From NCBI GenBank assembly GCA_965197475.1, contig CBDANF010000003.1:704001-768000 (forward strand): 64,000 bases of DNA, in the 5' to 3' direction. The position numbers and the translations under genes were made by a program. This stretch comes from Candidatus Poribacteria bacterium. Its GTDB lineage: Bacteria; Poribacteria; WGA-4E; WGA-3G. A model generated the notes under the pieces. It was given only the letters and a program-made list of their open reading frames with translations. It searched no databases and had not been told where the DNA came from. Shown piece after piece: positions 16,710 to 54,070 of the stretch. The stretch's first letter is position 1. Each line of letters begins with the position of its first letter.

Positions 16710-16799
16710 TACGCAATTAACGCGATTTGTCCTGTGAGGTCCCCGTGCCTCACAATGCTAACCGCTACGTAGAAAACTTCGAATCAAGTTAATTTGGTA
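16710..16799. mobile_element. 90-bp MITE, TACCAAATTAAC family (copy E1)
   Basis: TIRs TACGCAATTAAC and GTTAATTTGGTA, flanked by TAA on both sides; inverted near-copy of 17115-17204. Confidence 0.85.
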
Positions 16800-16802
16800 T
16801 AA

Positions 16803-17111
16803 TACCAAATTAACGGGATTTGTCTTATTTTCTGGACGGTAGGTGCGGTTTCTAACCGCACCATAGGCGTCAATTTAAGGAAAGAACTCGTTTGTAGTCG
16901 CGCAATTCACGCGCCTCTTATATTCAAAGAAAAGAGGCGCGTGAATTGCGCGACTACGAACGCAGATATTCTCGTCCTTTGCGTTATTTGAGATGTTGGG
17001 ACAAAAAGGAGCAGTTAAGAAACCGCACCTACCGGGTTAGGGACCGCTAAATTGACGCTAATGGTGCGGTTAGAAACCGCACCTACCGAGTGGGATCAAG
17101 TTAATTTGGTA
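16803..17111. mobile_element. 309-bp MITE, TACCAAATTAAC family, carrying nested REP doublets (copy E2)
   Basis: Perfect 12-bp TIRs with TAA flanks; inverted pair of GTAGGTGCGG REPs (16837-16879 / 17046-17088) enclosing a GTAGTCGCGCAAT doublet (16889-16962). Confidence 0.85.
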
Positions 17112-17114
17112 TAA

Positions 17115-17204
17115 TACCAAATTAACGGGATTATTAGTTTTCTACGTAGCGGTTAGCATTGCGAGGCACGGGGACCTCGCGCTACACATCGCGTTAATTG
17201 GGTA
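17115..17204. mobile_element. 90-bp MITE, TACCAAATTAAC family (copy E3)
   Basis: TIRs TACCAAATTAAC and GTTAATTGGGTA with TAA flanks. Confidence 0.85.
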
Positions 17205-17230
17205 TAACACATCGCTTTACGGATATTTAT

Positions 17231-18112
17231 ATGCCTTCTGAAACAGTCGGAAAATTTGGGCAACACATGCTAAATCTGCAGTCAATAGAAGCCTTACTTG
17301 ACCTCGCCTTTGCAGAGGATATCGGTATAGGTGATATTACCACAGAGGCAACAGTGCCACCCTCTCAAAAAGGTATCGGGACACTCTATGCTAAGAGTGA
17401 CGGTATTGTCGCTGGTCTACCGATCGCTGAACGGACCTTTAAGAAATTGGATTCTGGACTTATCTTCAATGCTTTTGTCAGCGATGGAGACGCAATTACT
17501 GCAGGCACCCCTATTGCTGAGATTCAAGGTAGTGCGAAAACAATCCTGATAGGTGAGCGAACTGCTCTCAACTTCCTTCAACGACTGTCTGGTGTAGCAA
17601 CGTTAACATCACAGTTTGTCAAAGCAGTCGCAGACTATGATGTGAAAATAGTTGATACACGAAAGACAACCCCAGGCTGGCGCGCGATTCAGAAATATGC
17701 AGTCCGTGTAGGGGGTGGTGATAACCATCGCTTTGGGCTTTATGACGGCGTGTTAATCAAAGATAACCACATTGTCGCAGCAGGTGGAATTCGAAATGCA
17801 GTTCAACGCGCGCGGTTGATTGCGCCGCATACCACAAAAATTGAAGTTGAAGTTGAAACGATTGAGCAAGTCAACGAAGCACTTGATGTAGGGGCTGACA
17901 TTTTACTTTTAGATAACATGTCCCTTGACACCATGAAACAAGTTGTCAAACTGGTAAACAAACTTGTAGTCACTGAAGCTTCAGGTGGGATAACTTTGGA
18001 ACAGGTGCGAGATGTTGCTGCTATAGGTGTAAACTTAATATCTGTTGGGGCTTTAACGCATTCAGCGATGCCAATGGACATAAGTCTAAGTTTAACACTT
18101 GTTGAGGCATAG
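17231..18112 (+). CDS. nadC: Nicotinate-nucleotide diphosphorylase (carboxylating)
   Basis: EDIG.GDITT, ERTALNFLQRLSG, DTRKTTPG, LIKDNH, EASGGI; start may instead be 17267. Confidence 0.95.
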   Translation: MPSETVGKFGQHMLNLQSIEALLDLAFAEDIGIGDITTEATVPPSQKGIGTLYAKSDGIVAGLPIAERTFKKLDSGLIFNAFVSDGDAITAGTPIAEIQGSAKTILIGERTALNFLQRLSGVATLTSQFVKAVADYDVKIVDTRKTTPGWRAIQKYAVRVGGGDNHRFGLYDGVLIKDNHIVAAGGIRNAVQRARLIAPHTTKIEVEVETIEQVNEALDVGADILLLDNMSLDTMKQVVKLVNKLVVTEASGGITLEQVRDVAAIGVNLISVGALTHSAMPMDISLSLTLVEA

Positions 18113-18169
18113 AATGTTCACATTTGAAACATTTTTATGGTGCTTAGAACAAAGGAAAAATAGATAGCA

Positions 18170-19297
18170 ATGCAAGCCCCTATGAGCCGCGATAATATGA
18201 TTCGCGGCATCCTTCTTTTTATGTTGTTTACGCTGGCCGGGTTATTGCTCAGTTTTTTTTGGAGCGGTACGCAAGACATAAAAAGTGGAACAGAAGATTT
18301 AAAACTAGTCTTTCTGGGGATGCGGTATGAATTTCTGATCGGTACGTGCGTGTGTATGTTAGTAGATTGGTTATGTGGCGGGCTTCGATTCCACATTTTT
18401 GTCCGGATAGTAACTCCGACAATTAAATTCCGGGATAGTTGTCGTGCTATTTTAGCAACAATCTGTGTATCAGCGATTACGCCTTTTCAGACTGGCGGAG
18501 TTGGTCATCTCTATATTTACGCTCGATCCGGCGTTCCACTGTCGGGTGCCATTACAGCCGGTATCGTTGCCTTCCTCTCTACCCTAGTCATTCTCATCCT
18601 CTCTGCAGGCGGTATCTTGTTGTTGTATCCAAGTTCCATACCGGAAGAGACCACGTGGATCATTCTATTAAGTTTTCTGATATTTAGTTTAGTATTTATA
18701 ACGTTCCTTCTGTTGCTTTTCAAACCTGAAATTGTTCTCCGTTTTTTTAATTGGCTCACGAAACTTGTAGGACGCAGGTTTACACCCCTTGCACCTCTCT
18801 TAGAACGTGTGACGTTGAAAGTGGAGCAGCTCACCACTGAACACAAAACTTTTGCCGCAACGCTTCTCCGCAATCATAAATGGGCTTGCCTCTTGAGTTT
18901 ATTCCTCACTTGCGGATTCTTTGGGGCAAGAATTGTTGGCAGTTACTTCGTTGTAAAAGCCCTTGACGCAGAAGCGATACTTTGGGAACTATGTGTTGTT
19001 GGAATGATGCTGAATTTTGTCGTACTGTTCGCGCCAACCCCAGGGGCAAGTGGGGTTGCAGAGGGCACAACAAGCCTATTAATGAAAAATCTTATCAAGG
19101 GGAAATTGATTACTCCCTTTGTGCTGCTAACGCGATTTTTCACCGTCTATTGTGCTGTTGTTATTGGTGGTATTGTAATCGGTTTACAATTGGCAAAAGA
19201 TTTCAGAATTAGTAAAAAAGGCATAGTTGAAGATGCTGTGCCACAAGTGAGAGCTCACCCTATTGGAGAGCTCAAGGATAAAAAAGGGCATAACTGA
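18170..19297 (+). CDS. Lysylphosphatidylglycerol synthase TM-domain (flippase-like) membrane protein
   Basis: Multi-TM protein with ITPFQTGG and [11 protein letters not shown] motifs. Confidence 0.8.
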
Positions 19298-19383
19298 GAA
19301 GATGGCTGTCAGTAAAGACTGTGTTTTTCATAACCTATTACCGACAACCGATTATCATTGGAACTATGTCCGAAAGGAGAAAT

Positions 19384-20289
19384 ATGGAAAAAGTTGATCC
19401 GAAAACAACGAAACTTGGTTGGATTGGTACCGGGGTGATGGGCAGATGGATGTGCCAACACCTTATGGACCTTGGATACAGCATGACTGTCTATAACCGC
19501 ACGAAATCGAAAGCGGAACCGCTCATTGATGATGGCGCAACTTGGGCAGACTCTCCAAGTGAAGTAGCTGCCGCCTCCGATGTCATCTTTACCATTGTCG
19601 GGTTTCCACCTGATGTGCGAGAGGTGTATCTTGGTGATAACGGTATCTTGAAAGGTGCAAAATCTGGAAGTATTGTCGTTGATATGACAACAACTGAACC
19701 TTCCCTCGCACAAGAGGTATACAGTAAAGCAGAGGAACAGAACGTCGCTTCCGTAGACGCTCCTGTTTCAGGTGGGGATGTCGGTGCGCGGGAGGCACGT
19801 CTCTCTATCATGGTTGGCGGTGACGAGGCAGCGGTGCAAGCGGTCATGCCTCTCTTCTCTGCTATGGGGAAAAATATTGTCCATCAAGGCGGTGCAGGTG
19901 CAGGACAACACACCAAGATGTGCAATCAGATTACGATCTCTGGCACAATGATTGGCGTATGTGAAGGTCTACTCTACGGCTATAAAGCGGGTTTGGATTT
20001 GGAAACGATGCTATCTTCAATCAGTGGTGGGGCAGCCGCTTGTTGGTCGTTGGATAACTTAGCACCGCGTGTCCTCAAGCGTGACTTTGATCCGGGCTTC
20101 TTCGTAGAGCACTTCATCAAAGATATGAGCATCGCTTTAGACGAAGCCAGAAAAATGAATTTGAGTCTTCCAGGACTCGCATTGGTGCATCAACTTTATA
20201 CTGCAGTGCAAGCGCAAGGACATGGACGTTTAGGGACACAAGCCTTGTTGCTCGCTTTAGAGCAGATGTCCGGGGCAGAAGTAGGTTAA
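19384..20289 (+). CDS. NAD(P)-dependent beta-hydroxyacid dehydrogenase (3-hydroxyisobutyrate DH / tartronate semialdehyde reductase family)
   Basis: [30 protein letters not shown]; AAAGGAG RBS before 19384. Confidence 0.9.
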
Positions 20290-20303
20290 TTACGCGATGC
20301 TGT

Positions 20304-20390
20304 CTGATAAGGTTCGGCAGTTGACACTCATTTTTAGAAGAAGTTTATTTCTTCCAATAAACGATTGCTAACTGCCGAAAACCTTTCAGA
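20304..20390. terminator. Long imperfect inverted repeat between convergent genes
   Basis: TCTGATAAGGTTCGGCAGTT ... AACTGCCGAAAACCTTTCAGA. Confidence 0.5.
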
Positions 20391-20398
20391 ACGGTTCA

Positions 20399-21502
20399 TT
20401 AGGATCTCAAACGCATCGGTGCAAGGAAACATTTATGTCCATCATCCCCCATAGGTTTAACAATAAGGAAACTAAACTCTCCCGAAAACTCAAGGATTAC
20501 AGATTCCGTTTCAATATGTGTAAAGATTTCTGTTAGTCTATGAGCATCCAAACCGATCCGTACGTTTCCATTACTAGATTCAACAGCGACTGTTTCATGT
20601 GCTTCACCAAGTTCAGGGGTTTCGGTTGAAATTCGAATTTCTTCGGGATCAATCTCTAAACAGATCGCAAAATTTTTCGGATTTGAAAGTAAAGCCACTC
20701 GGCGGGTCGCTCGTAGGATTGATTCCCTTGATACAACCGCCCGACCCTCAGAAAATTCCTGTATAAGCGATTGGTATTTTTGATATTCACCTTCTACCAA
20801 ACGTGTTGTCAAGGTGGCGTTGTTATCGGTAAGAAGAATTTGATTCTTGAGCAGTAAAATCTTAACCTCGGTGGAATTGGCAAAGGTACGCGCAATTTCC
20901 TTGACAGCCTTCAGTGGAACAATAAATTCACTAACATCTTCAGATGTTTTTAGGGGTGAACAATTTGCCAACGCAAGTTTATGTCTATCAGTTGCGACCA
21001 CTTCAGTTCTATCTTCAAGAAGATTGAAAAAAAGCCCGTTCAGCTGGTACTGAAATTCCTCTGTAGATGCCGCAAACGCTGTTTTGTGGATAACAGAGCA
21101 CAAGGTTTCACCATCAATAGTTACACCTTCTCCCTCAGCAGATGGCAGTTGTGGAAAATCTTCATCGGAGAGCCCAATCATTTTGTAAGTACCATCTCCG
21201 CAAGTGAGTTCAACACGGTCATTTGCGGTTGTAACCAAGTTTATCGGCTTATCTCCGGGTAATTCTCGGACGATGTCTGTCAATTTTTTAGCAGAGACCG
21301 TGATAGCCCCTTCTTCCAGGATAGTGCCTACCACTTTAACTCTAATACCGACTTCTAAATCGGTCGCTGCAAATTCAATGTTCCCATCTTGTGCGCGAAT
21401 AAGAACATTTGCGAGAATCGGCAAGGTGTTACGTCCACTTGCTACACCTTGAACTAGTTGTAAGGAATATAAAAGTTCGTCTTTTTCAAAAGTAAGTTCC
21501 AT
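20399..21502 (-). CDS. dnaN: DNA polymerase III beta sliding clamp, divergent paralog (copy B)
   Basis: Full-length clamp (TLPIL.NVL, ATDLEV, DFP.LP, LNG, ATD, PMRL), colinear with the adjacent copy. Confidence 0.9.
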   Translation of the reverse strand: MELTFEKDELLYSLQLVQGVASGRNTLPILANVLIRAQDGNIEFAATDLEVGIRVKVVGTILEEGAITVSAKKLTDIVRELPGDKPINLVTTANDRVELTCGDGTYKMIGLSDEDFPQLPSAEGEGVTIDGETLCSVIHKTAFAASTEEFQYQLNGLFFNLLEDRTEVVATDRHKLALANCSPLKTSEDVSEFIVPLKAVKEIARTFANSTEVKILLLKNQILLTDNNATLTTRLVEGEYQKYQSLIQEFSEGRAVVSRESILRATRRVALLSNPKNFAICLEIDPEEIRISTETPELGEAHETVAVESSNGNVRIGLDAHRLTEIFTHIETESVILEFSGEFSFLIVKPMGDDGHKCFLAPMRLRS

Positions 21503-21539
21503 TGCAATCGCTCCTATTATTTTAGTGTCAAATCATTAA

Positions 21540-21705
21540 TAAGACTTACGGAATTTGTCAGATTTTAATCCAAGCATTCCTTTCCCATATTTTGAGTTAA
21601 TTATACGTTAAAAAATGGAAAAGTCAAGTATTTTTAACAAATGTTAAAATCTGTCAGGTTTGTCATAAGAATCGGGGAAATCCTATCGTCAGCGTAATGT
21701 CTACA
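21540..21705. repeat. Degenerate inverted-repeat element between the dnaN copies
   Basis: TGTCAGATTTTAA / TTAAAATCTGTCA arms; left end AAGACTTACG resembles the CAGGACTTACGCA TIR family. Confidence 0.45.
21600..21627 (-). promoter_or_regulatory. Sigma70-type promoter for dnaN copy B
   Basis: Minus strand TTGACT, 16-nt spacer, TATAAT; about 100 nt upstream of the ATG at 21502. Confidence 0.55.
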
Positions 21706-21732
21706 TCCTGATAAGTAAAACGTATATACGAC

Positions 21733-22851
21733 TTAGGATTCTGATGACGAATTTGTTTCTAAGCGCATCGGCATGATGATACAAATGTGTACATCATCAC
21801 CTACAGGTTTTACAACAAGTGGATTCAACTCTCCAGAAAACTCTAAAACCAGAGATTCAGTCTCAATGTGTGCTAAAACCTCCGTCAACAACCGCGCATC
21901 AAAACCGATCCGAACGCTACCGCTGCCAGATTCTACTGCAAGTGTCTCGTGTGCCTCACCATGTTCAGGCGACTTTGCTGAAACCTGAATCTGTTCGGGG
22001 TCTATATCTAAGCAGATCGAAAAATTTTTCGGATTTGAAAGTAAAGCCACTCGCCGCGTAGCACGTAAAATTGATTCCTTCGATACGACCGTACGACCCT
22101 CAGTAGATTCGGGTATGATCGTCTGATATTTCGGATATTCGCCTTCTACCAAACGTGTTGTCAACGTTGCGTTTTCATCCGCAAAAAGAATTTGATTCTT
22201 GACAAGTGAAATTTTTACCTCAGGGGAATCGGCGAAGGTGCGTTCAATCTCCTTGACAGCTTTCAGCGGGACAATGAATCCGCTGATATCTTCAGGTGCC
22301 TTCATGGGAGCACAATGTGCAAGCGCGAGCTGTTTTCCATCAGTTGCGACCACTTCAGTCTTATCTTCAAGAAGGTTGAAAAAGAGCCCGTTCAAAAAGT
22401 ATCGGACCTCCTCTGTAGATGCAGCGAATTCTGTTTTATGGATAACAGAACACAAAGTTTCACCTTCAATCGTTATAGCCTCACTATCAACAGATGGTAG
22501 TTGTGGAAAATCTTCATCGGAGAGTCCAATAATTTTATAAACACCATCTCCGCAAGTGATTTCAATTCGATCGTTTGCAGTTGTAACGAGTTCGATCGTT
22601 TTATCTGGTAATTCTCTAACAATGTCTACCAATTTTTTAGCAGAAACCGTGATGGATCCTTCTTCTTTGATAGTTCCAATGACTTTGACTTTGATGCCGA
22701 CTTCCAGATCGGTCGCTGTACATTCAATGTTCCCGCCCTCGGCACGAATGAGGACGTTTGAAAGAATTGGCAAGGTATTACGTCCACTTGCCACACTCTG
22801 AACTATCTGTAAGGAATATAAAAGTTCATCTTTTTCAAAAGCAAGTTCCAT
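21733..22851 (-). CDS. dnaN: DNA polymerase III beta sliding clamp, canonical-looking copy (copy A)
   Basis: VRYFLNG, ATDG, GEYPKY and IIMPMRL motifs conserved. Confidence 0.95.
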   Translation of the reverse strand: MELAFEKDELLYSLQIVQSVASGRNTLPILSNVLIRAEGGNIECTATDLEVGIKVKVIGTIKEEGSITVSAKKLVDIVRELPDKTIELVTTANDRIEITCGDGVYKIIGLSDEDFPQLPSVDSEAITIEGETLCSVIHKTEFAASTEEVRYFLNGLFFNLLEDKTEVVATDGKQLALAHCAPMKAPEDISGFIVPLKAVKEIERTFADSPEVKISLVKNQILFADENATLTTRLVEGEYPKYQTIIPESTEGRTVVSKESILRATRRVALLSNPKNFSICLDIDPEQIQVSAKSPEHGEAHETLAVESGSGSVRIGFDARLLTEVLAHIETESLVLEFSGELNPLVVKPVGDDVHICIIMPMRLETNSSSES

Positions 22852-23039
22852 TCCAAGAGCTCCTATTTTTATTGTATCAAGTAAATTAATAACGTGAGTT
22901 TGACTTAAACGCTTCGTGAATTAACACCGAATACATGTATGGTTTTCGGCGGGTTGAACAACGTGAAACCTAATGCTTTTCATGCCTACATTTCCCAGAG
23001 CCATTCAGTTTTCGGTTTTTTGCCTGTTTTAGTCGTAAA

Positions 23040-23097
23040 GTCGCGACCTGCGAATCAACGCCAAATGCACTTATTGCATTTGGCGGGTCGCTCCTAC
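23040..23097 (-). repeat. GTAG REP interrupted by a 33-bp micro-hairpin
   Basis: Removing 23052-23084 restores GTAGGAGCGACC-CGCA-GGTCGCGAC. Confidence 0.7.
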
Positions 23098-23161
23098 AGA
23101 GGAGAAACCTTGAGCAGAAGGTAACAACTACCGGAGAATTGAAGGACTCTGTATTTTCACC

Positions 23162-23190
23162 TTGACAGACTTTTGATTGTTTAGTATAAC
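23162..23190 (+). promoter_or_regulatory. Sigma70-type promoter
   Basis: TTGACA, 17-nt spacer, TATAAC. Confidence 0.7.
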
Positions 23191-23289
23191 ATACTATAGA
23201 AAATATATCCATTATATTTTGGTATATCATCTTTAGCAGTTTCAGAACAGAAATTGTGTCAGCATCTTAATTTCACCCTCCTAACAAGA

Positions 23290-29622: not shown

Positions 29623-29899
29623 ACTAAACTTTGGACAATTTTAGAGTGCTTGTGTGGTAACAGGGGTAATAGAAACACCTTGTACATCAAAATAAGATTT
29701 GTTTATACACATTTCGCCCGCTGGGACTTACTCCGTTAAGGTTATCGTTTTCTATAAACATTCCGTCCTGCTGGGGCTGCTCTTTGCTGCACACGAAATA
29801 CTTTTTTCTGCGAGTTACGAACCTGAACAAAACTTGCAGAAAATAGAAACATATTTGAAAACTCAACATCAAATAGACAAAAATTGTCCTAACTTTAGT
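29623..29899. mobile_element. MITE, ACTAAASTTWGGACAATTT family
   Basis: 19-bp imperfect TIRs; internal CTATAAACATT...GCTGGGGCT repeats; homologous to 46555-46971. Confidence 0.8.
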
Positions 29900-29937: not shown

Positions 29938-29956
29938 GATTATACATGAAGTCGTA

Positions 29957-30939
29957 TTGAGTAAAACATAAGGATGTGGTAAAATAGGGAAAAAAGGGTA
30001 TAATTTATGTCCCTTTCTTTCCACTTCAGATACCGCTTTACTTTATGAAAGGTGTTATTATGGCAAACGAGGCTCAAAAATCACCAAAATACAACTGTAT
30101 TCCCAAACAGGTTTCCCGTAAAGATTTCAATCGTTATATCTTACCACATTTAGCGAAACGAGTCAAAGGCCCGAAACCGAAACTCTCCTTGGACAAGATA
30201 TTCAACTATATCCTCTATGTTTTACATACGGGTATTCAATGGGATCAACTCCGAACCCGGCATCCTGAACTCCATTGGTCTAATATCTATAAATGGCATA
30301 ATCGGTGGTCAAAAGATGGCTCGTATCAGAAACTTTTTGAGGCATCAGTGATACACGTGCTTGACACCGACCAACTTGACACCTCTCAACTTCATGGAGA
30401 TGGGTCAAATACCGTCGTGAAAAAAGGGGTGACAGCATCGGTTATTCAGGCCACAAACATCAAAAAGGTGAAAAAGAGTTGACCATCACTGACAATCAGG
30501 GGTTCATCATCGGTCCGATAACCATCAAACCTGTCAACCAACATGGGACAAAGATTTTGCCCGAAGCATTCACCGATCTTATCGCCTTTGCTAATCGTAT
30601 TGGAATGGATCTTAGTGCTTCCGTTCTAACACTGGATTCCGGTTTTGATTCCAAAGAGAATCATAAGATTATCAAACAACACGGGCTGCTCCCGGTGATC
30701 TATCCGAACCGGCGGAATGCCAAAGAACCTATTGTAATTGCCCGTCCGTTCCGGTGGTTTAACAAGAAAATGGACAAAGACCGATATAAAGTGGAACGAA
30801 CTTTTGGTTGGCAAGGGACTTATCGGAAGCTCGCCCTTAGTTATGATAAACTGAAAGAAACCCGTTTAGGTTTTCGTAATTTAGCATATTCAATGATAAA
30901 CTTTCGGAGAACTTTCAATGATTCTTAGCTCTTACTCGC
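29957..30939 (+). mobile_element. IS5-family insertion sequence
   Basis: Imperfect TIRs (GAGTAAAACATAAG vs GAGTAAGAGCTAAG); TA on both flanks; encloses a split DDE transposase. Confidence 0.8.
30045..30928 (+). CDS. IS5-family DDE transposase in two ORFs joined by a -1 frameshift at AAAAAAGGGG (30420-30429)
   Basis: ILYVLHTGIQW and HNRWSKDG; the shifted join reads KKGGDSIGYSGHKHQKG; D(GDGS), D(LDSGF), E(VERTF) triad. Confidence 0.85.
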
Positions 30940-31754
30940 TATGAGTTTTTTATGTCTTGAAAAAGTCCCGAACTTGTCCCAAATTTGACTAATTGTTGCT
31001 TCAGCACCTCCCATTCCTTTTTTTGAGTAGCTTCTATCCGCGTTAGTAGCATTGGAACATCGCTACCTTCTGGATCGTTAAATTCCCGTGCCGGATCGTA
31101 AGTTCGATTAGGTCGTGACCTAATCGGCGATGTACTAAATACAGATAAACTACCAAAGGTAGCCCACGGTCGGTATTGGCTTATTCCAATATAGTGACTC
31201 TTTTTTCTCAAATATTCGTCTAAAGCAATTTCTCTATCAGATTCCCCTCTAAAAATGGGTGAAAGTAAGTTAATAGGAGGTGGGGCTAAGGTGTCAGTAC
31301 CACAAATTATTTGATATTGATTTCGTTTTTCATCATAAGAGGCTAAACGCACAATCTTTTCGATTTGTTCCTCGGTTTCAAGAATGATTTCACCATCAAC
31401 GAATTTTACTCTTATTGAACTGACAGTCGGTTCAATTCTTCCTTTTTTCTCAACAAATTCAACTGTCACTTCGGCATCTTCATTGTTGTATGTGCCAGCA
31501 AACCCAAGTTTAAAGTTTTTCTCTCTTTTTTTACTGTTTCTGACAATATCCTTAAAGGTGCCTAATGAATAAAGATCCGAATTAAAATCTAATTCCCTAT
31601 ATCGTAAATAATCCACTAATACTTGGAAACAAGCGAGCGCAGTCGTCTTGCCGGTACTATTTTCACCAACTAAAAACGTTAGCGGGCGAATTTCAAGTGT
31701 CTGACGTTCTCCGAAACAGCGAACCTCTTCCATTGTAAACTGGGTAATGCTCAT
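30939..31754 (-). pseudogene. Truncated ABC/AAA_21-type ATPase
   Basis: LVGENSTGKT Walker A present; no signature, Walker B or HLHP region; stop codon formed at the IS junction. Confidence 0.7.
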
Positions 31755-36810: not shown

Positions 36811-36961
36811 CAGGACTTACGCATTCCCCCTTGATAAGGGGGTTAGGGGGTTAAATAGGCAGAATTTGGTGCTTTTATCTCCCCGGACGCTATCGCTATG
36901 GGGCCCCGCCCCCTAAATCCCCCTTATCAGTGGGACTTTTAAACACATTGCGTAAGTCCTG
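36811..36961. mobile_element. MITE, CAGGACTTACGCA family
   Basis: Perfect 13-bp TIRs; ATATA on both flanks; internal GGGGGTTAGGGGG / CCCCCTAAATCCCCC hairpin. Confidence 0.85.
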
Positions 36962-38727: not shown

Positions 38728-38947
38728 TACCAAACAGGACTTACGCATTCCCCCTTGATAAGGGGGTTAGGGGGGTTAAAAAGTCGCTGTTTCAGTGATT
38801 TAACCCCCTAAATCCCCCTTATCAGAGGGACTTTAAGAAAAAATGCGTAAGTCCTGACCAAATTAACCTGATTTGTCGCGCGAGGTCTCTGGGTTCTCCT
38901 CGCAATGCTGCCTTTATCAGAAAAATAATAATCACGTTAATTTGGTA
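38728..38947. mobile_element. TACCAAATTAAC-family MITE whose left TIR is interrupted by another MITE
   Basis: T-ACCAAA[insert]ACCAAA-TTAAC ... GTTAATTTGGTA; body homologous to E1/E3. Confidence 0.8.
38735..38856. mobile_element. MITE, CAGGACTTACGCA family
   Basis: Perfect 13-bp TIRs; 6-bp target duplication ACCAAA; near-copy of 36811-36961. Confidence 0.9.
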
Positions 38948-38950: not shown

Positions 38951-39107
38951 TAACCCAAGTTGCCACCTTTGTAGCATAATCTGTTAGATTGTGCCTATAA
39001 GTGCGCAAACTGACATTGGACGCTACAAAACTTTCGCAAATAATGCACTATTTTTGATTAAAACAGTGTCTACATGTCTAAAATCTTATAGGTAGCAACT
39101 TGGGTTA
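38951..39107. mobile_element. MITE, TAACCCAAGTTGC family, with a GTAG doublet
   Basis: TIRs TAACCCAAGTTGCCACCT / AGGTAGCAACTTGGGTTA; TAA on both flanks; internal TTTGTAGC...GCTACAAA. Confidence 0.8.
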
Positions 39108-45531: not shown

Positions 45532-45641
45532 TACCATTTCTCAAAAATAACTTCTCTTAAAAAAATAGACAGTTCGTAGTCGCGCAATTCATTGCGCCTC
45601 TTACATTTTTTCAAAAGAGAAAATAATTTATAGAATTGGTA
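45532..45641. mobile_element. MITE, TACCAWTTCT family, carrying a GTAGTCGCGCAAT REP
   Basis: TIRs TACCATTTCTCAAAAATA / TAATTTATAGAATTGGTA; TAA on both flanks. Confidence 0.75.
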
Positions 45642-46443: not shown

Positions 46444-46549
46444 TAGTTAAATCTAAGTGCGTATACAATTCCTTGTAGGCGCGCTTTATAGGCGCGCTTA
46501 CAAAGCGCGCCTCCCGTTAGTAGTGTTCAAGCAATTATGGGTTTTACTA
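46444..46549. mobile_element. MITE-like element, TAGTAAAACC family, with a GTAGGCGCGC REP
   Basis: Ends TAGTTAAATC / GGTTTTACTA with TTA and TAA flanks; right end similar to 39301-39433. Confidence 0.6.
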
Positions 46550-46554: not shown

Positions 46555-46971
46555 TACTAAAGTTTGGACAATTTTAGAGTTCTTGTGTCATAACTTAGGT
46601 TGATGGAACACCTTAGGTATTAACTGGATTATACTATACACCTGTCGCCCGTTGGGGCTTTAGACTGAGGCAATAGCCTTGTTCTATACACCTATCGCCC
46701 GCGGGGCTAATATTTGATCCTCTATCATTTATATTTTCTGCGATTTTGCTGACTGAAAGAGCTCGTAGAAAAATACTTTTGGGCAGCCCCAGCCAAATCA
46801 ACGCCAAATGCGCGTGTGGCATTTGGCGGGGCGGAATGTTTATAGAAAAGTGGTGTTCCAGGATACGGAGACCCAGCGGGGCGACAAGTGTCCAGCATTT
46901 TTTACTTTATACACCTAATAGTCTCTCAGCAAGTCCACTTGAACAGCGTGTAAATTGTCCAAACTATAGTA
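46555..46971. mobile_element. MITE, ACTAAAGTTTGGACAATTT family (long form)
   Basis: TIRs TACTAAAGTTTGGACAATTT / AAATTGTCCAAACTATAGTA; two forward and two reverse CTATA...GGGGCT repeats. Confidence 0.8.
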
Positions 46972-47463: not shown

Positions 47464-47487
47464 TAAGATGCAATATCTGATTCATAT

Positions 47488-47560
47488 TCCCTCATAGCTC
47501 AGTTGGTAGAGCAGATGGCTGTTAACCATCGTGTCGGCGGTTCGAGTCCGTCTGGGGGAG
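47488..47560 (+). tRNA. tRNA-Asn (GTT); CCA not encoded
   Basis: Cloverleaf: acceptor TCCCTCA/TGGGGGA, D arm GCTC/GAGC, anticodon arm GATGG-CTGTTAA-CCATC, T loop TTCGAGT. Confidence 0.97.
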
Positions 47561-47564
47561 TTTC

Positions 47565-47607
47565 AAGTGATGCTGATGGATTTTAAAGTTCGTCAGCATC
47601 ACTTTTT
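47565..47607 (+). terminator. Intrinsic terminator (possibly bidirectional)
   Basis: AAGTGATGCTGA ... TCAGCATCACTTTTT. Confidence 0.8.
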
Positions 47608-47637
47608 AAATTAGGGATTTCTTAAAATCTATTCAAC

Positions 47638-49266
47638 TTAGGATTCACGGAGTGCATCTGCTTTCAGCCAGCCAATAGAGTCAATAATTTTATCCTGATG
47701 CTCCCGCATCATCACCTCAATGAGTGCCGGTTTTTCAGCAGCAAGCGCGTCCCGTAAGATCGGCTTAAAATCCTCCAAATTTTCAACCTTCCGAGCATAA
47801 GCCCCGAAAGACTGCGCGAATTTGACAAAATCGGGATTCCGCAGGTCTGTGTCAATAGTACGTCCCTCAAATCCTTTCAATTGAGATCCTTTAATCGCTG
47901 ACAACGCATCATCATTCACTACAATTGCCACGACATTGATGCCATATTTCATGGCGGTTGCCATTTCCATTGCTCCCATTAGAAAACCTCCATCGCCACT
48001 AAAACAGATTACCGGACGGTCCGGATACGCGACTTTGGCACCGATAGCTGCAGGATAGGCGTATCCTAATGCAACACCGATATTCGGGTAGAGGAAGGTA
48101 CACGGATCGTAAATAGGAAACTCAGCAAATGACGCATAACCAAGTGAGTGAACATCAATTGAATAGATGGTATCTCGTGGCAGAACATCTTGCAGTTCGT
48201 GAATGATAGGCAAAGGCGGCTGCGTATCAAACTTAGCGCGAAGTTGCGGTAGCACGGCATCCCATCCATTTCGATCAGTGGATATATCCTCAATAAGTGC
48301 CTGCAAGGTAAGTTTTAAATCACCTACAACACCTATTTCACACGGATATTCTCGTCCAATTTCGTTTTCATCTTCGTCAATTTGGATAAACGGCTGCGGC
48401 AGTCTCATGCTCCAGCTTCCCGTATCAATGGATGTAAACCTCGGTCCAATACCAATTAAACAGTCAGCATGCTTGAGAACCTCTTGACCTAAAAAGCCGT
48501 AGCAGACTTGCAACGCTAACGGATGGTCTTCCGACAAAGTACCTTTTGCACAACGGGAGACAATAACAGGTGCTTTCAATTTTTCTGCAAGCAGTCTTAA
48601 CTCATTTCTGGCATTGGCATGAATCACAGCGGAACCGGCAAAAATCAGGGGCATTTTCGCATTGCGTATCTTATTAACCGCGGTACTTAGGATGGAATCA
48701 TCGGGTGGAGGTAATTCGGTGCGTTCGATTCGTGGCGGAATTCGGACTTCACTTTCTTCAGTGATTACGTCCATTGGGAATTCCAACACCGTTGGTCCTG
48801 GTCTACCGTTACGCATCGCCTTAAAGGCGTTTTCAACGACATCAGGAATCTCGGAGACAGTATGCGCAATAGCACAATACTTGGTGAGTGGTTCAAAAAA
48901 GCGCATTTGGTCCAAGCCGTGGAACATCTTACTCGGATGTCTGCTGTAAGAATCAGAATGGCTCTGTCCAGTAATGAGTAATACTGGCACACAATCGGTA
49001 AAAGCCTCCAAAATCCCTGTAGAAGCATTGCTTGCCCCCGGACCAGGCACGGTGATGGCAACGCCGACCTCACCTGTTGCGCGAGCGAACCCGTCTGCCA
49101 TTTGTGTCGCGGCGTACTCGTGTCGGACAAGAAAATGATTGATTGAACCCGTTCCGCGGCGGAGCAGGGAATCGTAGATTTGCATGTTTTGAGTTCCTGG
49201 CATTCCGAAAACTGCCGTAACCCCTTGTGCTTTCAAACATTCAATCAGAATATCTCCACCTTTCAC
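47638..49266 (-). CDS. Thiamine pyrophosphate-binding protein (acetolactate synthase large-subunit-like)
   Basis: VFGMPG, RHE..A..MADG.AR, GPG.SN, GDGGF...N motifs. Confidence 0.9.
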   Translation of the reverse strand: MKGGDILIECLKAQGVTAVFGMPGTQNMQIYDSLLRRGTGSINHFLVRHEYAATQMADGFARATGEVGVAITVPGPGASNASTGILEAFTDCVPVLLITGQSHSDSYSRHPSKMFHGLDQMRFFEPLTKYCAIAHTVSEIPDVVENAFKAMRNGRPGPTVLEFPMDVITEESEVRIPPRIERTELPPPDDSILSTAVNKIRNAKMPLIFAGSAVIHANARNELRLLAEKLKAPVIVSRCAKGTLSEDHPLALQVCYGFLGQEVLKHADCLIGIGPRFTSIDTGSWSMRLPQPFIQIDEDENEIGREYPCEIGVVGDLKLTLQALIEDISTDRNGWDAVLPQLRAKFDTQPPLPIIHELQDVLPRDTIYSIDVHSLGYASFAEFPIYDPCTFLYPNIGVALGYAYPAAIGAKVAYPDRPVICFSGDGGFLMGAMEMATAMKYGINVVAIVVNDDALSAIKGSQLKGFEGRTIDTDLRNPDFVKFAQSFGAYARKVENLEDFKPILRDALAAEKPALIEVMMREHQDKIIDSIGWLKADALRES

Positions 49267-49430
49267 GTTTTACTCTCCTTTGTGCTTTTTCAGGAAATCT
49301 TCCAACCAAGCATCCGGATCACGTCCAAGTTTCCGCAGAAACTGACATCCTATTTTCTTAACAAAATTGGGAAGTAGGTTAAAAAGTCTTAGTTGCCAAC
49401 TCATAATAGTTCCTATAAAGGATACACAAG

Positions 49431-50561
49431 TTAATTCAGTAATGCCGCGCCTGTAACTTTGTCAAAAAGATGGATACGTTCAGGCACAAACGTAACATAG
49501 AGATACTGTCCAATTTCCGTATCAAAATTAGGGGATGTGCGGGATTTAAGGATCGTATGCGCGCCAGATGCATCTGTACCGAGCGTCAACTCAACTATCG
49601 TTTCTGCACCGAGCGGTTCAACGCTATAAACTTCAGTCTGAAAAGCATTCGGAACGGATTGATGGCTAACGAGCACATCTTCAGGATAAACCCCAAAGAC
49701 TAAGTTCTGGTTTGTACCATTTTCGGATACAGTTTTAGCGATACGGGAATCTTCAATAGAAAAACAATTGTTTTCTGTCGTGTCACCAGATAGAGTCAAT
49801 TGGAGGTTGCCGTTACTGCTTGAGATTTCACACGGGATACAGTTCATATTTGGACTGCCGATGAAACCCGCAACGAACAGATTCGTAGGGTGATTGTAAA
49901 TATCGGAGGGCGTTCCTAACTGCTGAATCCTGCCCGCTTCAAGCACAGCGATACGGTCTGCCATGGACATCGCTTCCACCTGATCATGTGTAACATAGAA
50001 TGTGGTAGTACCGAGTTCGCGTTGCCGCCACCTGATTTCAGCACGCATTTCGGTCCGAAGTTTCGCGTCAAGATTTGAAATCGGTTCATCCATCAGAAAC
50101 ACCTGTGGATGGCGCACCATTGCTCTGCCGAGTCCAACGCGCTGCGTCTCACCACCGCTCAACTGGTTCGGTGTCCGCATAAGTAGATGCTCAATATGTA
50201 ACATCTGCGCAATATCCTTGACACGCCGGTCAATCTCTTCAGCAGACAGATTGCGGGGGTGTAATGGGAATGCCATGTTCTCGTAGACAGAAAGGTGAGG
50301 ATAGAGAATATGAGATTGAAAGACAAAGGCGACATCACGCTCAGCAGGTGTTTTGTCGTTCACGCGAATACCGTCTAAGTAAATACTGCCTTCTTCGGGT
50401 TTGTCCAATCCGGCGACACACCGCAGCGTTGTCGTTTTCCCTGCCCCGGTCTGACCGAGTAGCACAAAGAACTCTTCATCTTTCACATCAAGTGTGATGT
50501 CGTCCAAAGCGATGAGCTCGCCGAACCGTTTTGTAACGTTTTCCAGTTTTACTGTTGCCAT
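49431..50561 (-). CDS. Sugar ABC transporter ATP-binding protein (MalK-like)
   Basis: GQTGAGKT, LSGGE.QR, LMDEP.SNLDAKLR, VTHDQ, C-terminal TOBE domain. Confidence 0.92.
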   Translation of the reverse strand: MATVKLENVTKRFGELIALDDITLDVKDEEFFVLLGQTGAGKTTTLRCVAGLDKPEEGSIYLDGIRVNDKTPAERDVAFVFQSHILYPHLSVYENMAFPLHPRNLSAEEIDRRVKDIAQMLHIEHLLMRTPNQLSGGETQRVGLGRAMVRHPQVFLMDEPISNLDAKLRTEMRAEIRWRQRELGTTTFYVTHDQVEAMSMADRIAVLEAGRIQQLGTPSDIYNHPTNLFVAGFIGSPNMNCIPCEISSSNGNLQLTLSGDTTENNCFSIEDSRIAKTVSENGTNQNLVFGVYPEDVLVSHQSVPNAFQTEVYSVEPLGAETIVELTLGTDASGAHTILKSRTSPNFDTEIGQYLYVTFVPERIHLFDKVTGAALLN

Positions 50562-50731
50562 ATTGGTATGTGATTGTTATCAGGTTATATTTTATTATTG
50601 CATGAATTGCAATTGGATGTCAATAGAAATAGGGTTCATTGTTCATTTCTCCACCATCTATGAGATTTGTCTTTTACTGCTCTTTGTGCTATAATAGATT
50701 TCAGCATTTACCTCACTGCTAAGGAAACACC

Positions 50732-51796
50732 ATGTTACATCGCGGTTTAAAAAACGGAGAAACGCTTCCTAACATTGATAAAATACTCATCATCCGCGCT
50801 GATGGTATCGGCGATTTGCTGAACTCAACACCAGCGATAGCGTTGTTGCGGCAGAACTACCCATCAGCAGAGATTACGGTGCTGGCGCGTCCACTCAATG
50901 CACCATTGCTACTCGGAAACCCTGATGTTGATAAGGTACTTGTATTTGATCGACAGGGGGGTCATCGTCATTTATCGGAGCAACTCCAATTCTACCACGC
51001 CCTACGTCGTGAGGGGTTTCATCTCGTTGTCGCGATGCAAACCGCTACGTGGCCACATTTCGTTGCTTTTCTTTCAGGTGCTCCCTATCGCTTAGGTCGC
51101 TATCAGAAACGGTTTAAGTCTACACTCACGCATGTGTGGCACGGCAAGTATCAAAAAGGCGAAACCCATGAAGTTGATAGAAACTTGGAATTAGTGAGGT
51201 TAATCTGCCAAGGTGAAGGCACACGACAACTTGTTTTCAATCTGTTGCCTGATGAAATTGCGAATGCCGAAACACACCTTGCATCTTGGCGTGTGGGTGA
51301 TGGGACTTTTCTAATCGGCATTCATCCTGGAGGAAGTTCTTTTGATAAACGTTGGCCCGAAAAGCAGTATGCGGAGCTTGCTGACAGGCTAGTACATCAT
51401 TACAACGCCACGATTCTCCTCTTATGTGGCCCCGACGAATCTGCGTTAGCGCAGAATATCCAGGAAGCGATGCAGTCAAATGCTATCGTTCACGCGCCAA
51501 AGACAATTCGTGAGTTAGGTGCCCTGCTTTCCCGCTGCGGCTTGGTACTGTGTAATGATTCAGGTCCAATGCACCTTGCGGCAGCAGTAGACGTGCCGAC
51601 GGTAGCGATCTTCGGCCCCACCGATCATGTTGCGTGGCATCCGATGAGTGAGAACGCATCTGTTGTGCGGAGAGATATGCCGTGCTGGCCCTGTAGTGCG
51701 CATAAGTGTAAAATCGGATGGGAATGCACCAAGAAATTGCCTATTGAAACGGTTTGGAATACAACGACTATGACCGTAGAAGCGAGTCGAAAATGA
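50732..51796 (+). CDS. Glycosyltransferase family 9 (LPS heptosyltransferase-like)
   Basis: IGD....P, HPG.S...KRWP, NDSGPMHLAAA...PTVAIFGPT, CxPC. Confidence 0.9.
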   Translation: MLHRGLKNGETLPNIDKILIIRADGIGDLLNSTPAIALLRQNYPSAEITVLARPLNAPLLLGNPDVDKVLVFDRQGGHRHLSEQLQFYHALRREGFHLVVAMQTATWPHFVAFLSGAPYRLGRYQKRFKSTLTHVWHGKYQKGETHEVDRNLELVRLICQGEGTRQLVFNLLPDEIANAETHLASWRVGDGTFLIGIHPGGSSFDKRWPEKQYAELADRLVHHYNATILLLCGPDESALAQNIQEAMQSNAIVHAPKTIRELGALLSRCGLVLCNDSGPMHLAAAVDVPTVAIFGPTDHVAWHPMSENASVVRRDMPCWPCSAHKCKIGWECTKKLPIETVWNTTTMTVEASRK

Positions 51797-53037
51797 AAAT
51801 AGCCATAGCAACCTGGGGAACAACAGGAGATGTCTATCCTCTTTTAGCACTCACAGAACGTCTGCTGAAAAAAGATCATCAGGTACGTGTGTGCGCGCCA
51901 TCCATCTATAAAGGCAAGGTTGGCAACATCGGCGCGGACTTCTATGAGGTAGGAGTCGCTTTTGAGTTAGCAGAATTTCATCAAAAGATGGATACCGTCA
52001 TTGCGATGCGCGATCCTATTGCACCACTGTTGCTTATTGCAAAGGAAGGGATTCTGCAAAGTGGTGAAAAGTGGTATACCGATTGCCTTGAAGCAATGAA
52101 AGGATACGATCTGGTTATATGTCATTCCATAGATATCCCTGGACAAGAGGCAGCTATCCGAAACGAGTTGCCATGGCTGACTGTGACGTATTGCCCAGGC
52201 TTCATTAAAATACCTGATAACGCGCCGTATCCGTTTCCGAATTGGGGACGAACATTCAACGCTATCGTGTGGAATTTGGTAAGACTCCGTCTCCGATACG
52301 TTGTTGATCCTCTTTTTAATCAATTTATCACATCTGTCGGTGGAAAACCGAGAGCAACGGTGGCATTAGATGAAATGTATTCGCCACATCTGAACCTCAT
52401 CGCGGCATCCCCTACGCTCTGTCCATCAGCCAATTTTCCTCTGAACCACAAGTTTACAGGTGTGTGGCATCTCGCGCAGCCAAACTACGTGCCGCCACCT
52501 GAACTCACAGATTTTTTAGCAGACGGACCGCCGCCTATCGTCGTTACGTTTGGATCTATGGGTGGAAGCAAAGGTCGTGAAACAACGGAAATTTTAATTG
52601 ATGCCATCAAAATGACAAGACAGCGTGCTATAATTCAAGCAGGATGGGGACTTTTAGGTGCTCAGGATACTGGAGAGAACATTTTTTGCACGGAGTATGT
52701 ACCGCATCGGTGGTTGTTTCCGAAGGCGAGTTGTGTTGTCCATCACGGCGGCGCAGGCACTACAGCATCAGTATGTTATGCCAAAGTTCCGTCAGTCGTT
52801 GTGCCACACATCGCCGATCAACCCTATTGGGGAAAGCGACTCTTTGACTTGGGAGTTGCGCCAAAAAGCCTGCACAGACGTAAACTAACTGCTAAACATC
52901 TTGCCAGACGGATTGAACAGGTTTTAGGAACGCCGACTATGGCTGAACGTGCAAAGACCTTAGGGACACAAATGGAATCTGAAGATGGTTTGACAACTGC
53001 AGTTGACCTGATTGAATCTTTTCATCTATCTGAATAA
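51793..53037 (+). CDS. GT1/GT28 glycosyltransferase (sterol glucosyltransferase-like)
   Basis: GT.GDV.P, FGSM, VPH.WLF, HHGGAGTT, P..ADQPYW; ATGA overlap with the upstream gene. Confidence 0.9.
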   Translation: MKIAIATWGTTGDVYPLLALTERLLKKDHQVRVCAPSIYKGKVGNIGADFYEVGVAFELAEFHQKMDTVIAMRDPIAPLLLIAKEGILQSGEKWYTDCLEAMKGYDLVICHSIDIPGQEAAIRNELPWLTVTYCPGFIKIPDNAPYPFPNWGRTFNAIVWNLVRLRLRYVVDPLFNQFITSVGGKPRATVALDEMYSPHLNLIAASPTLCPSANFPLNHKFTGVWHLAQPNYVPPPELTDFLADGPPPIVVTFGSMGGSKGRETTEILIDAIKMTRQRAIIQAGWGLLGAQDTGENIFCTEYVPHRWLFPKASCVVHHGGAGTTASVCYAKVPSVVVPHIADQPYWGKRLFDLGVAPKSLHRRKLTAKHLARRIEQVLGTPTMAERAKTLGTQMESEDGLTTAVDLIESFHLSE

Positions 53038-54023
53038 TGAAAAAAATACTTGTTTTCAGTTTCAGTTTCATCGGTGATGCAGTGCTGTCTACTGCCGTTA
53101 TCCAACCTCTACGCAAACATTTCCCAAATACCCACATTACCTTTCTCGTTGGACCGCTCGCGTTTGATCTCCTTGCCAACGACCCTCAACTTGATGCTAC
53201 CCTCGTTTACGACAACCGTGGTGAACACGCCGGTTTGAAAGGGCGAATGAAACTTATAAAAACGTTACGCCGAGAGAAGTTTGATCTCGTTGTGAATCTT
53301 CGAGATAGTTTCACTGCACGGTGTATAGGCGCGGAACATTGGGGTTTGGTGCGTGGAGATGGGAATCGACACGCTGTTACCCGATACTTGGAAGTCCTTA
53401 GTCATCACGGTCTTGGGACAACAGATGCACATCCTCACTTACAGTTGACTGAAGCAGCGCATGCCACAGCATCCCGTTTTCTTGCCAAGGCAGGACTTAC
53501 GTCTGAACGTTTGTTGATTGGTATTCATCCAGGCGGAAATTGGGAATACAAGTTGTGGCGTGTTGAGAAATATGCGCAACTCGCGACCGCTTTATGTGAA
53601 AGACAGAACGCTTCGATTCTACTTTTTGCGGGACCAAATGAGCGGAAACTCCAATCACAGGTTGCGGATATGATGGATACCTCACCGATCCTTGTTGAAA
53701 CGGATAACCTACGAGAAGTCACGGCGTTGATTGCAGCGTGTGATATCTACATTGGCAACGACACGGGGCCGATGCACATCGCTGCTGCAGTCGGGACGCC
53801 TGTGGTTGCACTTTTCGGTTCAACAAACCACATTCGGAGCGGTCCCTATGGTGACGAGCATACAGTTGTGCAGAGTGGGATTGATTTGGGATGTAATCCG
53901 TGTCACCCTGGTCGGCATCCAGGAGGGTGTGGGGTTGGTAGTTGTGCTGTGATTGATGGAATTACAGTGGAACAGGTGTTATACCAAATTAACTTGATCC
54001 CACTCGGTAGGCGCGCTTTGTAA
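53037..54023 (+). CDS. Glycosyltransferase family 9; last 13 codons come from a MITE
   Basis: IGDAVL, HPGG....K.W, NDTGPMHIAAAVGTPVVALFG, CNPC. Confidence 0.9.
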   Translation: MKKILVFSFSFIGDAVLSTAVIQPLRKHFPNTHITFLVGPLAFDLLANDPQLDATLVYDNRGEHAGLKGRMKLIKTLRREKFDLVVNLRDSFTARCIGAEHWGLVRGDGNRHAVTRYLEVLSHHGLGTTDAHPHLQLTEAAHATASRFLAKAGLTSERLLIGIHPGGNWEYKLWRVEKYAQLATALCERQNASILLFAGPNERKLQSQVADMMDTSPILVETDNLREVTALIAACDIYIGNDTGPMHIAAAVGTPVVALFGSTNHIRSGPYGDEHTVVQSGIDLGCNPCHPGRHPGGCGVGSCAVIDGITVEQVLYQINLIPLGRRAL

Positions 54024-54070
54024 GCGCGCTGTCTGCCCAGAAAAACAAGGCTAATCCCGTTAATTTGGTA
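53982..54070. mobile_element. 89-bp MITE, TACCAAATTAAC family, with a GTAGGCGCGC REP
   Basis: Perfect 12-bp TIRs; TTA target duplication (53979-81 and 54071-73). Confidence 0.9.

Follow-up and report, generated by a model that had tools for sequence, protein, structure and literature searches.

The window analysed here, a stretch of 64,000 nucleotides (nt; G000:C3:704001-768000) from the genome of a Candidatus Poribacteria bacterium (G000; 5.70 Mb in three contigs, 43% G+C, completeness 92.7% and contamination 7%), carries a series of short elements in which the terminal inverted repeats (TIRs) of a transposon, which we call the shell, enclose GC-rich hairpins, the cargo, in many copies with the GTAG foot of repetitive extragenic palindromes (REPs). 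[quoted passage not shown] Public runs that contain the stretch include sponge metagenomes. Shells were named after their TIR words (A, TACCAAATTAAC; B, CAGGACTTACGCA; C, TACCATTTCT; D, TAACCCAAGTTGC; E, AACGTGAGYTC; F, ACTAAASTTTGGACAAT; G, TATAGTAAAACC) and cargos after their hairpins (R1, GTAGG-GYGCGS; R3, GTAGTCGCGCAATTCA; R5, GTAGGTTGGGTTGAGCTTGCGAAACCCAAC; P7, a hairpin of the GCCCGCTGGG type followed by an ATGTnTATAG-type tail); a de novo scan for TWA-flanked TIRs at strict settings, which returned 78 elements, served family naming only. The elements lie in the window as follows, with the strand where one is assigned.

16520-16702: shell E-type MITE-like element with ends AACGTGGGTTTGAT / ATCGAACTCACGTT and degenerate R5-like hairpin halves, adjoining the shell A array
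16710-16799, plus strand: shell A MITE of subfamily A3, 90 bp, R4 core with the GTCC foot variant, TAA on both sides
16803-17111: shell A MITE with an expanded core, 309 bp, with two inverted 41-nt arms at 16837-16877 and 17048-17088
17115-17204, minus strand: 90-bp shell A MITE of subfamily A3 with a GTAG foot, in the opposite orientation to 16710-16799
29623-29899: shell F MITE, 277 bp, two P7 modules
36811-36961: shell B MITE, 151 bp, with a long CCCCCTTGATAAGGGGG / GGGGTTAGG palindrome as core and no GTAG foot
38735-38856: shell B MITE, 122 bp, of the same core class as 36811-36961
38857-38947, plus strand: shell A MITE of subfamily A3, fused directly to the shell B end, its first T absent (GACC... 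and not TACC...)
38951-39107: shell D MITE of 157 bp between two TAA triplets, its core made of two R10 REPs in inverted orientation, GTAGCATAATCTGTTAGATTGTGC and GCGCAAACTGACATTGGACGCTAC
45532-45641: shell C MITE of 110 bp between two TAA triplets, with R3 core GTAGTCGCGCAATTCATTGCGCC
46444-46549: shell G-type MITE with ends TATAGTTAAATC / GGTTTTACTATA and two R1 hairpins
46556-46970: shell F MITE of 415 bp that holds several P7 modules; a 34-nt mini-element at 46794-46827 splits one of the P7 hairpins
53982-54070, plus strand: shell A MITE of subfamily A1, 89 bp, R1 core GTAGGCGCGCTTTGTAAGCGCGC, TTA duplicated at 53979-53981 and 54071-54073
57382-57409, plus strand: solo R1 REP GTAGGCGCGCTTTCTAAGCGCGCC, outside any shell

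The original prediction, made from the letters of the window, had described at least seven TIR families around GC-rich hairpins, most with a GTAG or ATAG foot, with one shell carrying different cargos and one cargo occurring in different shells. All seven families and the hairpins it quoted lie where it had placed them and are strongly repeated genome-wide. The stretches 53982-54011 and 17082-17111 are indeed exact reverse complements of each other, and beyond them the sequence runs onward as GTAGGCGCGC in one copy and as GTAGGTGCGG in the other; the shared cargo words likewise stand in separate contexts, GTAGTCGCGCAAT at 16894(+), 16945(-) and 45576(+), and GTAGGCGCGCTTT at 46475, 54007 and 57382. 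Within the window the shell A word TACCAAATTAAC has seven exact ends, or nine with up to one mismatch against 0.53 expected (a number reached by 0 of 100 shuffles), which make up five elements. CAGGACTTACGCA has four ends forming two elements, ACTAAASTTTGGAC two elements, TAACCCAAGTTGC one pair, TACCATTTCT one exact end with an imperfect partner, TAACGTGAG three ends, and TAGTAAAACC three ends that are all on the minus strand and hence give no exact pairs.

Against rough, composition-based expectations, the TIR words occur 20-152 times in the genome where about 0.1-46 would be expected (exact counts over expected of 152/1.4, 117/0.13, 31/0.17, 113/17 and 128/46), TAGTAAAACC being weak as a 10-mer (25 against 17), and the hairpin words are similarly frequent (GTAGGCGCGC, 119 against 4.5; GTAGTCGCGC, 65 against 5.9; GTAGGTGCGG, 90 against 5.9). 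A census of perfect 7-bp GC-rich stems by vectorised 7-mer matching gave 1631 hairpins, and in the 9 nt upstream of these the top enriched tetramers are GTAG (299 of 1631, 70.7 expected) and TAGG (290 of 1631, 53.9 expected).

Genome-wide, shell A comprises 91 TIR pairs of 80-99 bp, and shells B to G were counted at 13 to 85 pairs each. Parent insertion sequences (ISs) were sought by pairing each TIR at IS-like distances and looking for DDE matches inside the resulting elements; an automatic TIR search near DDE_3 matches was noisy, and only rows backed by the TIR-pair scan were kept. Shells A, B, C, E and G have their ends in common with full-length ISs elsewhere in the genome. The parent of shell A is an IS630-type element of 1064-1069 bp (two copies and one deletion copy) whose frame fragments match DDE_3, and those of shells C and G are also of IS630 type (1144-1156 bp, with 10 pairs in the size bin, and 911-912 bp, with 16 pairs). 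Shells B and E have DDE_Tnp_1 parents (1090-1092 bp, five copies with 5-bp duplications, and 1008-1018 bp, six copies), and for each of shells D and F there is a single full-length IS candidate. The genome holds 40 DDE_3 and 68 DDE_Tnp_1 matches, and the arms of the MITEs agree with the IS ends over about 17-40 nt. Because their TIRs are in common with full-length ISs outside the window, the shells are ordinary, classical MITEs: short, non-coding, present in many copies, with IS-matching TIRs and a target duplication. The proposed descent from DDE transposons therefore holds for A, B, C, E and G, given both their same-ended full-length ISs and their target duplications.

TWA is present on both sides of 100 of 116 shell A elements, and the two triplets are identical in 84 of these 100 (46 TAA/TAA and 38 TTA/TTA), which is therefore a 3-bp direct duplication; for shells B and E, 5-bp duplications were read from the copy listings. 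IS630 elements usually produce a TA duplication, and the IS630-type (DDE_3) lineage of shell A departs from this in its 3-bp TWA. For the copy at 53982-54070 the empty site could be found: the orthologous loci of two relatives (G017 and G020) run uninterrupted as ..GTGTTR-GARGT.., and the window reads GTG-TTA, the 89-bp shell A copy, then TTA-GAGG. This copy is a TTA-duplicating insertion, and both results bear out the earlier claim that the TIRs come with a target duplication. It sits in the 3' end of the open reading frame (ORF) 53037-54023, whose counterparts in relatives have different ends; because the shell A copy inserted there, the MITE supplies the final 14 codons of this ORF together with its stop.

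The three shell A copies of the array at 16710-17204 are spaced by single TAA triplets (GGTA-TAA-TACC), and GGTATAATACC has 21 occurrences in the genome; it follows that the target of a new copy is often the triplet duplicated by a copy already in place, and arrays arise in this way. Contigs of four public runs join 16704 to 17203 over a common TATAA, as in an allele without these three copies, a joint that gives modest support because the contig sides measure only 26-31 nt. Short-read contigs end within repeats and none crosses 16710-17204, so that the internal order of the array is without independent support. In the 309-bp copy each 41-nt arm consists of an R1/GTGCGG REP with a ATAGGCGTCAATTTA tail, and the arms enclose a 74-nt R3 palindrome (16889-16962) that is absent in other copies, where contig joints from 16888/16890 to 16965 skip 74-76 nt. 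The words of the adjoining element at 16520-16702 reach 10-100 times the depth of the flanks in short-read contigs. Furthermore, 21 of 90 aligned shell A copies across the genome form one near-identical subfamily, hairpin included, and the composites demonstrably transposed as units.

A conserved tail, YATAGGYGTCAATTTARG, comes after hairpins of differing class (R1/GTGCGG and R5), at 16837-16877, at 17048-17088 and at many other loci of the genome, and behaves like a further shared module next to interchangeable stems.

As to the cargos, the proposal that they are REPs of systems with an HUH transposase, the REP-associated tyrosine transposase (RAYT), was supported by three RAYT-like genes in the genome, which are bordered by inverted copies of R5, R10 and an R4-like REP.

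C3:968 kb: RAYT-1, 205 bits against NF047646 (cut-off 80), flanked by R5
C3:3466 kb: RAYT-like 2, 62 bits and thus below the cut-off, flanked by R10 arrays, GTAGCACAATCT..AGATTGTG and GCGCAAACTG..CGCTAC
C3:601 kb: RAYT-like 3, 26.5 bits against Pfam Y1_Tnp (cut-off 23), with the R4-like GTAGGGCGGGGTCTCCGTGCCCCGCAATGC upstream and inverted relatives downstream

HUH and Tyr motifs are readable in all three proteins. The REP of RAYT-1, GTAGGTTGGGTTGAG..AACCCAAC, stands in one copy on one side of the gene and in three inverted copies on the other, an arrangement that recurs in 11 of 22 related loci; the best 21 loci among the nearest relatives of RAYT-1 all belong to Candidatus Poribacteria metagenome-assembled genomes, at 64-91% identity. 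R10 is also the core of the shell D copy at 38951-39107, and the R4-like REP of RAYT-like 3 is identical to the shell A3 core, including the 3' AATGC, at 27 of 30 positions as counted by eye. Among the Y1-type genes found, with their flanks read, no RAYT gene is bordered by R1 or R3, the commonest cargos; the GTAGG foot that R1 and the RAYT-1 REP have in common is a mere hint. Homologues of RAYT-1 were found in 7 of 40 genus genomes and R1 hairpins in 38 of 40, and four of five apparent RAYT negatives have other RAYT lineages above the cut-off.

The surroundings of two of these genes deserve mention. In the locus of RAYT-like 2 (L147, G000 C3:3465045-3468437) R10 REPs lie in tandem units of ~33-44 nt, one REP in each, with five units before and four after the gene (positions 1040-1215 and 2060-2180). 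In that of RAYT-1 (L002, G000 C3:966677-970039) one neighbour is weakly like a methylation-associated defence ATPase (MAD3, 29 bits, far below the cut-off) and the other is a 416-aa frame with no NCBIfam match; the setting may be a defence island.

The same cargos occur in several shells and also alone, as predicted. Of 170 R1 hairpins with perfect stems, a GTAG/CTAC foot borders one side or both in 142; both flanks fall in a shell A cluster in 36 and are unique DNA in 46, the rest lying in shell E or other repeats. Unique DNA is likewise found on both sides of 23 of 69 R5 hairpins, and the free R1 and R5 hairpins have sharp limits at GTAGG/CCTAC and no TIR. With stricter patterns, 66 of 69 R5 hairpins lie outside shells, R3 is found 13 times in shells and 18 times outside, and 66 of 99 R6 hairpins are in shell B. 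Shell A carries R1 (54 copies) or R4 (47), shell C carries R3 (11), R9 (9), R6 (5) or R5 (2), and shell E, with a looser TIR match, carries R1, R8, R6 or R5 pairs. Read by eye and without a hairpin scan, the 95 nt at either end of the parent ISs contain no GC-rich hairpin with GTAG, and on this ground the cores are foreign to these ISs.

GTAG-footed hairpins are about five times denser in shells A-F (53 in 47.9 kb, or 1.11 per kb) than in other non-ORF DNA (186 in 843 kb, or 0.22 per kb), and they are rarer in long open frames (60 in 4.8 Mb, or 0.012 per kb). This fivefold excess counts amplified copies, which are therefore not independent events.

If cargos were exchanged freely, as the original prediction proposed, trees of shell and cargo should disagree. 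We built a tree from the arms (the first 19 and last 34 nt) of 90 shell A copies of 84-93 bp, longer, shorter and nested copies being excluded. The cargo is R1-GCGCGC in 43 of these copies, R4 in 31, R1-GTGCGG in 10 and another class in 6. Cargo class changes nine times on this tree, a few of these changes being due to copies misoriented by the orientation rule, and the mean over 1000 shuffles is 37.9 with a minimum of 29. In shell A the REP classes are congruent with the arms, which amounts to mostly simple descent after few acquisitions, and the expected incongruence did not appear; what survives of the interchangeable cargo is that small foot and loop variants assort freely. These results indicate that cargo was acquired rarely and was then amplified with the shell as a unit. 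At the level of REP class, turnover of the cores is rare, and at the foot and loop there is a fine-scale exchange. The interpretation offered by the original prediction is supported in part.

Nesting is common to several kinds of element in this genome. Shell A copies are nested within shell F copies, and a shell C copy within the shell A parent IS. A 34-nt element, consisting of CAAATCAACG and a hairpin with an 8-bp stem, lies within hairpin loops, between C and GGGG. It splits the loops of three shell A3 copies, other aligned A3 copies being without the insert, and its hosts are P7, R3, R5-type and shell A3 cores (at 46794-46827, C2:1197464, C2:1300584, C3:1941591 and other places). Its appearance is that of a tiny mobile element with hairpin loops as its target. 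In Nostoc, very small dispersed hairpin repeats are reportedly nested in larger repeats, as described by Elhai et al. in 2008; the 34-nt element looks similar to these, although phylum and sequences differ. The junction between the shell B end and the T-less shell A copy (..GTCCTG / ACCAAATTA.., 38847-38867) is also found at C3:2701967 and C3:1023741 of the genome, and its recurrence at three loci suggests a copied B+A composite or a preferred insertion point.

We favour, with a probability of roughly 0.62, the explanation that the elements are composite non-autonomous transposons, in which shells made of DDE-IS ends carry REP-type cargo and move with it as units, a few acquisitions having been followed by descent. 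Each shell would be made up of both termini, each about 17-40 nt long, of a DDE IS that is still resident in the genome, from IS630 for A, C and G and from DDE_Tnp_1 for B and E, and the cargo would be a hairpin of a REP or of a REP doublet forming a hairpin (REPIN), or another small hairpin module, that did not come from the parent IS. Judging from the sequences, the IS transposase would cut and paste the composite in trans as one piece and leave a TWA duplication with shells A, C and D and a 5-bp duplication with shells B and E; copies landing in the duplicated TAA of a resident copy would build arrays such as 16710-17204. The hairpins probably entered shells on only a few occasions, whether they inserted into a MITE already in place or were captured during the miniaturisation of an IS, and would then have been inherited with the arms to give subfamilies, remaining foldable via compensatory change or short-patch conversion. 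They may have accumulated in shells because an insertion into the interior of a MITE costs nothing and because each transposition of the shell copies the hairpin. RAYT-like genes would account for the origin of the REPs and would not be required for the movement of the composites.

Several findings sit uneasily with this explanation. Shell A with exact TIRs is present in 12 of 41 genomes including the present one (besides it, 11 of 24 from its genus, which makes 12 of 25 there, and none of 16 from three other families), and across these 12 genomes its hairpin with a foot is always at the same place, with differing stems; a hairpin fixed in this way could be needed by the element rather than be a passenger. 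None of the three copies of the shell A parent IS is unbroken, a shell C insertion having disrupted one, and yet 21 shell A copies are near-identical, in a genome that is 92.7% complete. No pair of otherwise identical shells with and without a GTAG REP was found, and the entry step is thus inferred. Finally, two small variants do not follow the arms tree at all: the R1 loop variant TTTGTAA/TTTGTCC (31 and 10 copies) changes 8 times against 8.18 when shuffled, and the R4 foot variant GTAG/GTCC (24 and 8 copies) 8 times against 8.21, so that some exchange limited to the core does occur.

A two-base alternative of TTGTAG or TTGTAA versus TTGTCC is seen at the foot or loop of R1, R3 and R4 genome-wide, and in the window at 16726-16731 (TTGTCC) and 16954-16955. 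At the latter position, short-read contigs of other runs have the GTAG/GTCC alternative at 49%, 44%, 0.7% and 0.2% of depth, and because it is seen in those contigs the dimorphism is not an assembly artefact. The R1 stem occurs in four combinations, all of which still pair; either compensatory changes or short conversions templated by other copies have therefore maintained the pairing.

The strongest of the alternatives, although we think it unlikely, is the model of the original prediction, a modular system with two chemistries, in which RAYTs cut at the GTAG foot and swap hairpin cassettes, DDE transposases move the shells, and the two are continually reassorted. The relation of shells to cargos is indeed many-to-many: R1 is carried by shells A, E and G; R3 by C and G, with a nested occurrence in A; R6 by B and C (and, by eye, E); R5 by C and A (and, by eye, E); and P7 by D, E and F as well as by other repeats. 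Such a system could also draw on the three RAYT-like genes with matching REPs, on the foot (GTAG/GTCC) and loop (AA/CC) variants, which are random on the arms tree and of which GTAG/GTCC recurs in other runs, and on the solo REP at 57382, whose orthologues between the same flanks have the stem GGCGCGC in three genomes (G000, G022 and G049) and GGTGTGG..CCGCACC in a fourth (G006), the REP being absent from this locus in G020 and G010. Continual reassortment is, however, at odds with the congruence of the coarse cargo classes with the arms (9 against about 38 changes), with the lack of a RAYT gene bordered by R1 or R3 among the loci read, and with a shell A core of another genome, G021: this core, GTAGGGGCAGGG.., gives 8 hits at 7 places there, all in shell A copies and none solo, and has no match in four other genomes. 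Truncated shell A cores were considered as products of excision at the foot, and this was rejected, as they look like slippage deletions between the palindrome arms and not like clean excision.

Next in order, and also improbable in our view, is the capture of filler DNA at the birth of the MITE, by which an interrupted gap repair after IS excision would switch template at short homology into a nearby REP, so that the REP marks the deletion junction and never inserted itself. The core is located exactly where the IS interior is absent, and stalling at a GC-rich palindrome is plausible. Copies of subfamily A1c pass directly from the initial 25 nt of the left IS end (..CTTGTA; ..ATTATTCTTGTA) into GGCGCGC, the TTGTA of the IS giving most of the GTAG foot; from its sequence this junction looks like a microhomology joint from IS miniaturisation, and it appears to speak against simple nesting. 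Nevertheless, hairpin cores in the shells of unrelated IS families would require many such accidents, nested insertions of small hairpin elements are demonstrable in the genome, and whole REPIN pairs with their spacers are found in shells C, D and E.

We hold it to be a doubtful, slightly more remote prospect that REPs are exchangeable cassettes, the MITE core being rewritten, and the arms left untouched, when a RAYT-type enzyme cuts at the (T)TGTAG foot or when other REPs template very short conversion tracts. DDE MITEs would then be a second, RAYT-independent route by which REPs multiply and cross genomes, and the recurrent swap of TTGTAG/TTGTAA to TTGTCC, which does not follow the arms tree, would be a footprint that switches the core on or off as a RAYT substrate. 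Least probable by some way is that the hairpin and its GTAG-like foot belong natively to the MITE and have a function there (in element folding or as a terminator), the free hairpins being remnants of MITEs that have decayed rather than REPs, since the fixed place and covarying stems of the shell A hairpin in 12 genomes, its confinement to shells in G021 and the GC-rich hairpin core of nearly every shell subfamily stand against unique DNA on both sides of 46 of 170 R1 and 23 of 69 R5 hairpins, with sharp GTAGG/CCTAC limits and no TIR, against the same hairpin classes inverted around RAYT-like genes (as in 11 of 22 related loci), and against parent IS ends that by eye are without such a hairpin.

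Composite non-autonomous transposons of the favoured kind can be set beside several known systems. The IS630-derived bacterial MITEs Correia/NEMIS of Neisseria and RUP of Streptococcus (PMC2817692, PMC3733652) are like the shells in being short, non-coding, multicopy, intergenic and foldable, with TIRs as in a co-resident IS630-family IS (DDE_3) and a short AT-rich duplication. Unlike these, the shells described here have a 3-bp TWA duplication, confirmed by the empty site, their centre is a GTAG REP of another transposase system, and at least three IS630-type and two DDE_Tnp_1-type shells of the same architecture are found in one genome. The cargos resemble the REPs and REPINs of RAYT systems (Nunvar 2010, PMC2817692; Bertels and Rainey 2011, PMC3116915; Di Nocera 2013, PMC3733652), which are also GC-rich imperfect palindromes with a 5' GTAG, extragenic, in hundreds of copies and in inverted doublets, with single-copy RAYT genes that have HUH and Tyr motifs and lie between inverted cognate REPs. 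In contrast to those systems, a large share of the hairpins here lies within TIR-bounded DDE MITEs and is amplified along with them, R1 and R3 are without a flanked RAYT gene, and several REP classes coexist with three divergent RAYT-like genes.

RAYTs bordered by long TIRs, described by Di Nocera et al. (PMC3733652), are a different arrangement. The bacterial interspersed mosaic elements (BIMEs) of enterobacteria (PMC2817692) are similar in being mosaic higher-order REP arrays of alternating orientation with recurring linker modules, but the outer modules here are transposon TIRs with target duplications, and the mosaics arise by nested transposition. The REP-targeting ISs IS1397 and ISPpu9 (PMC3116915, PMC12288879) also associate IS and REP physically, with the inverse topology: there an IS interrupts a REP, and here a REP lies within an IS-derived element. 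Full-text searches and passages of PMC3733652, PMC3184786, PMC2817692, PMC3116915 and PMC10969869, supplements aside, yielded no account of DDE-type MITEs with REP cores, nor any survey of repeats in Poribacteria.

It is usual to regard REPs and MITEs as separate repeat classes with their own enzymes, and here REP cores are found in the MITEs of at least five IS lineages in one genome, so that one kind of selfish DNA would be copied around by another between the genes of a sponge symbiont. If this is general, DDE transposases could spread REPs, the abundance of REPs need not follow RAYT activity, and annotation by hairpin alone or by TIR alone misfiles such elements; the genus would then be natural material for asking whether the cores aid MITE transposition and whether RAYTs edit the cores.

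Some minor observations concern the window and the genome at large. A cyanobacterial origin of the genome was considered and dismissed: the HIP1 word GCGATCGC has 64 occurrences genome-wide against ~95 expected, and RAYT-1 has its relatives in Poribacteria. An Rfam scan of the window gave a tRNA at 47488-47560 as its sole match. The original prediction had stated that no matching transposase lies in the window, which is correct for the shells; an unrelated IS is nevertheless present, an IS5-family element of ~1002 bp at ~29948-30947, with two overlapping frames (DUF4096 and DDE_Tnp_1_2) and ~13 near-full-length copies in the genome.

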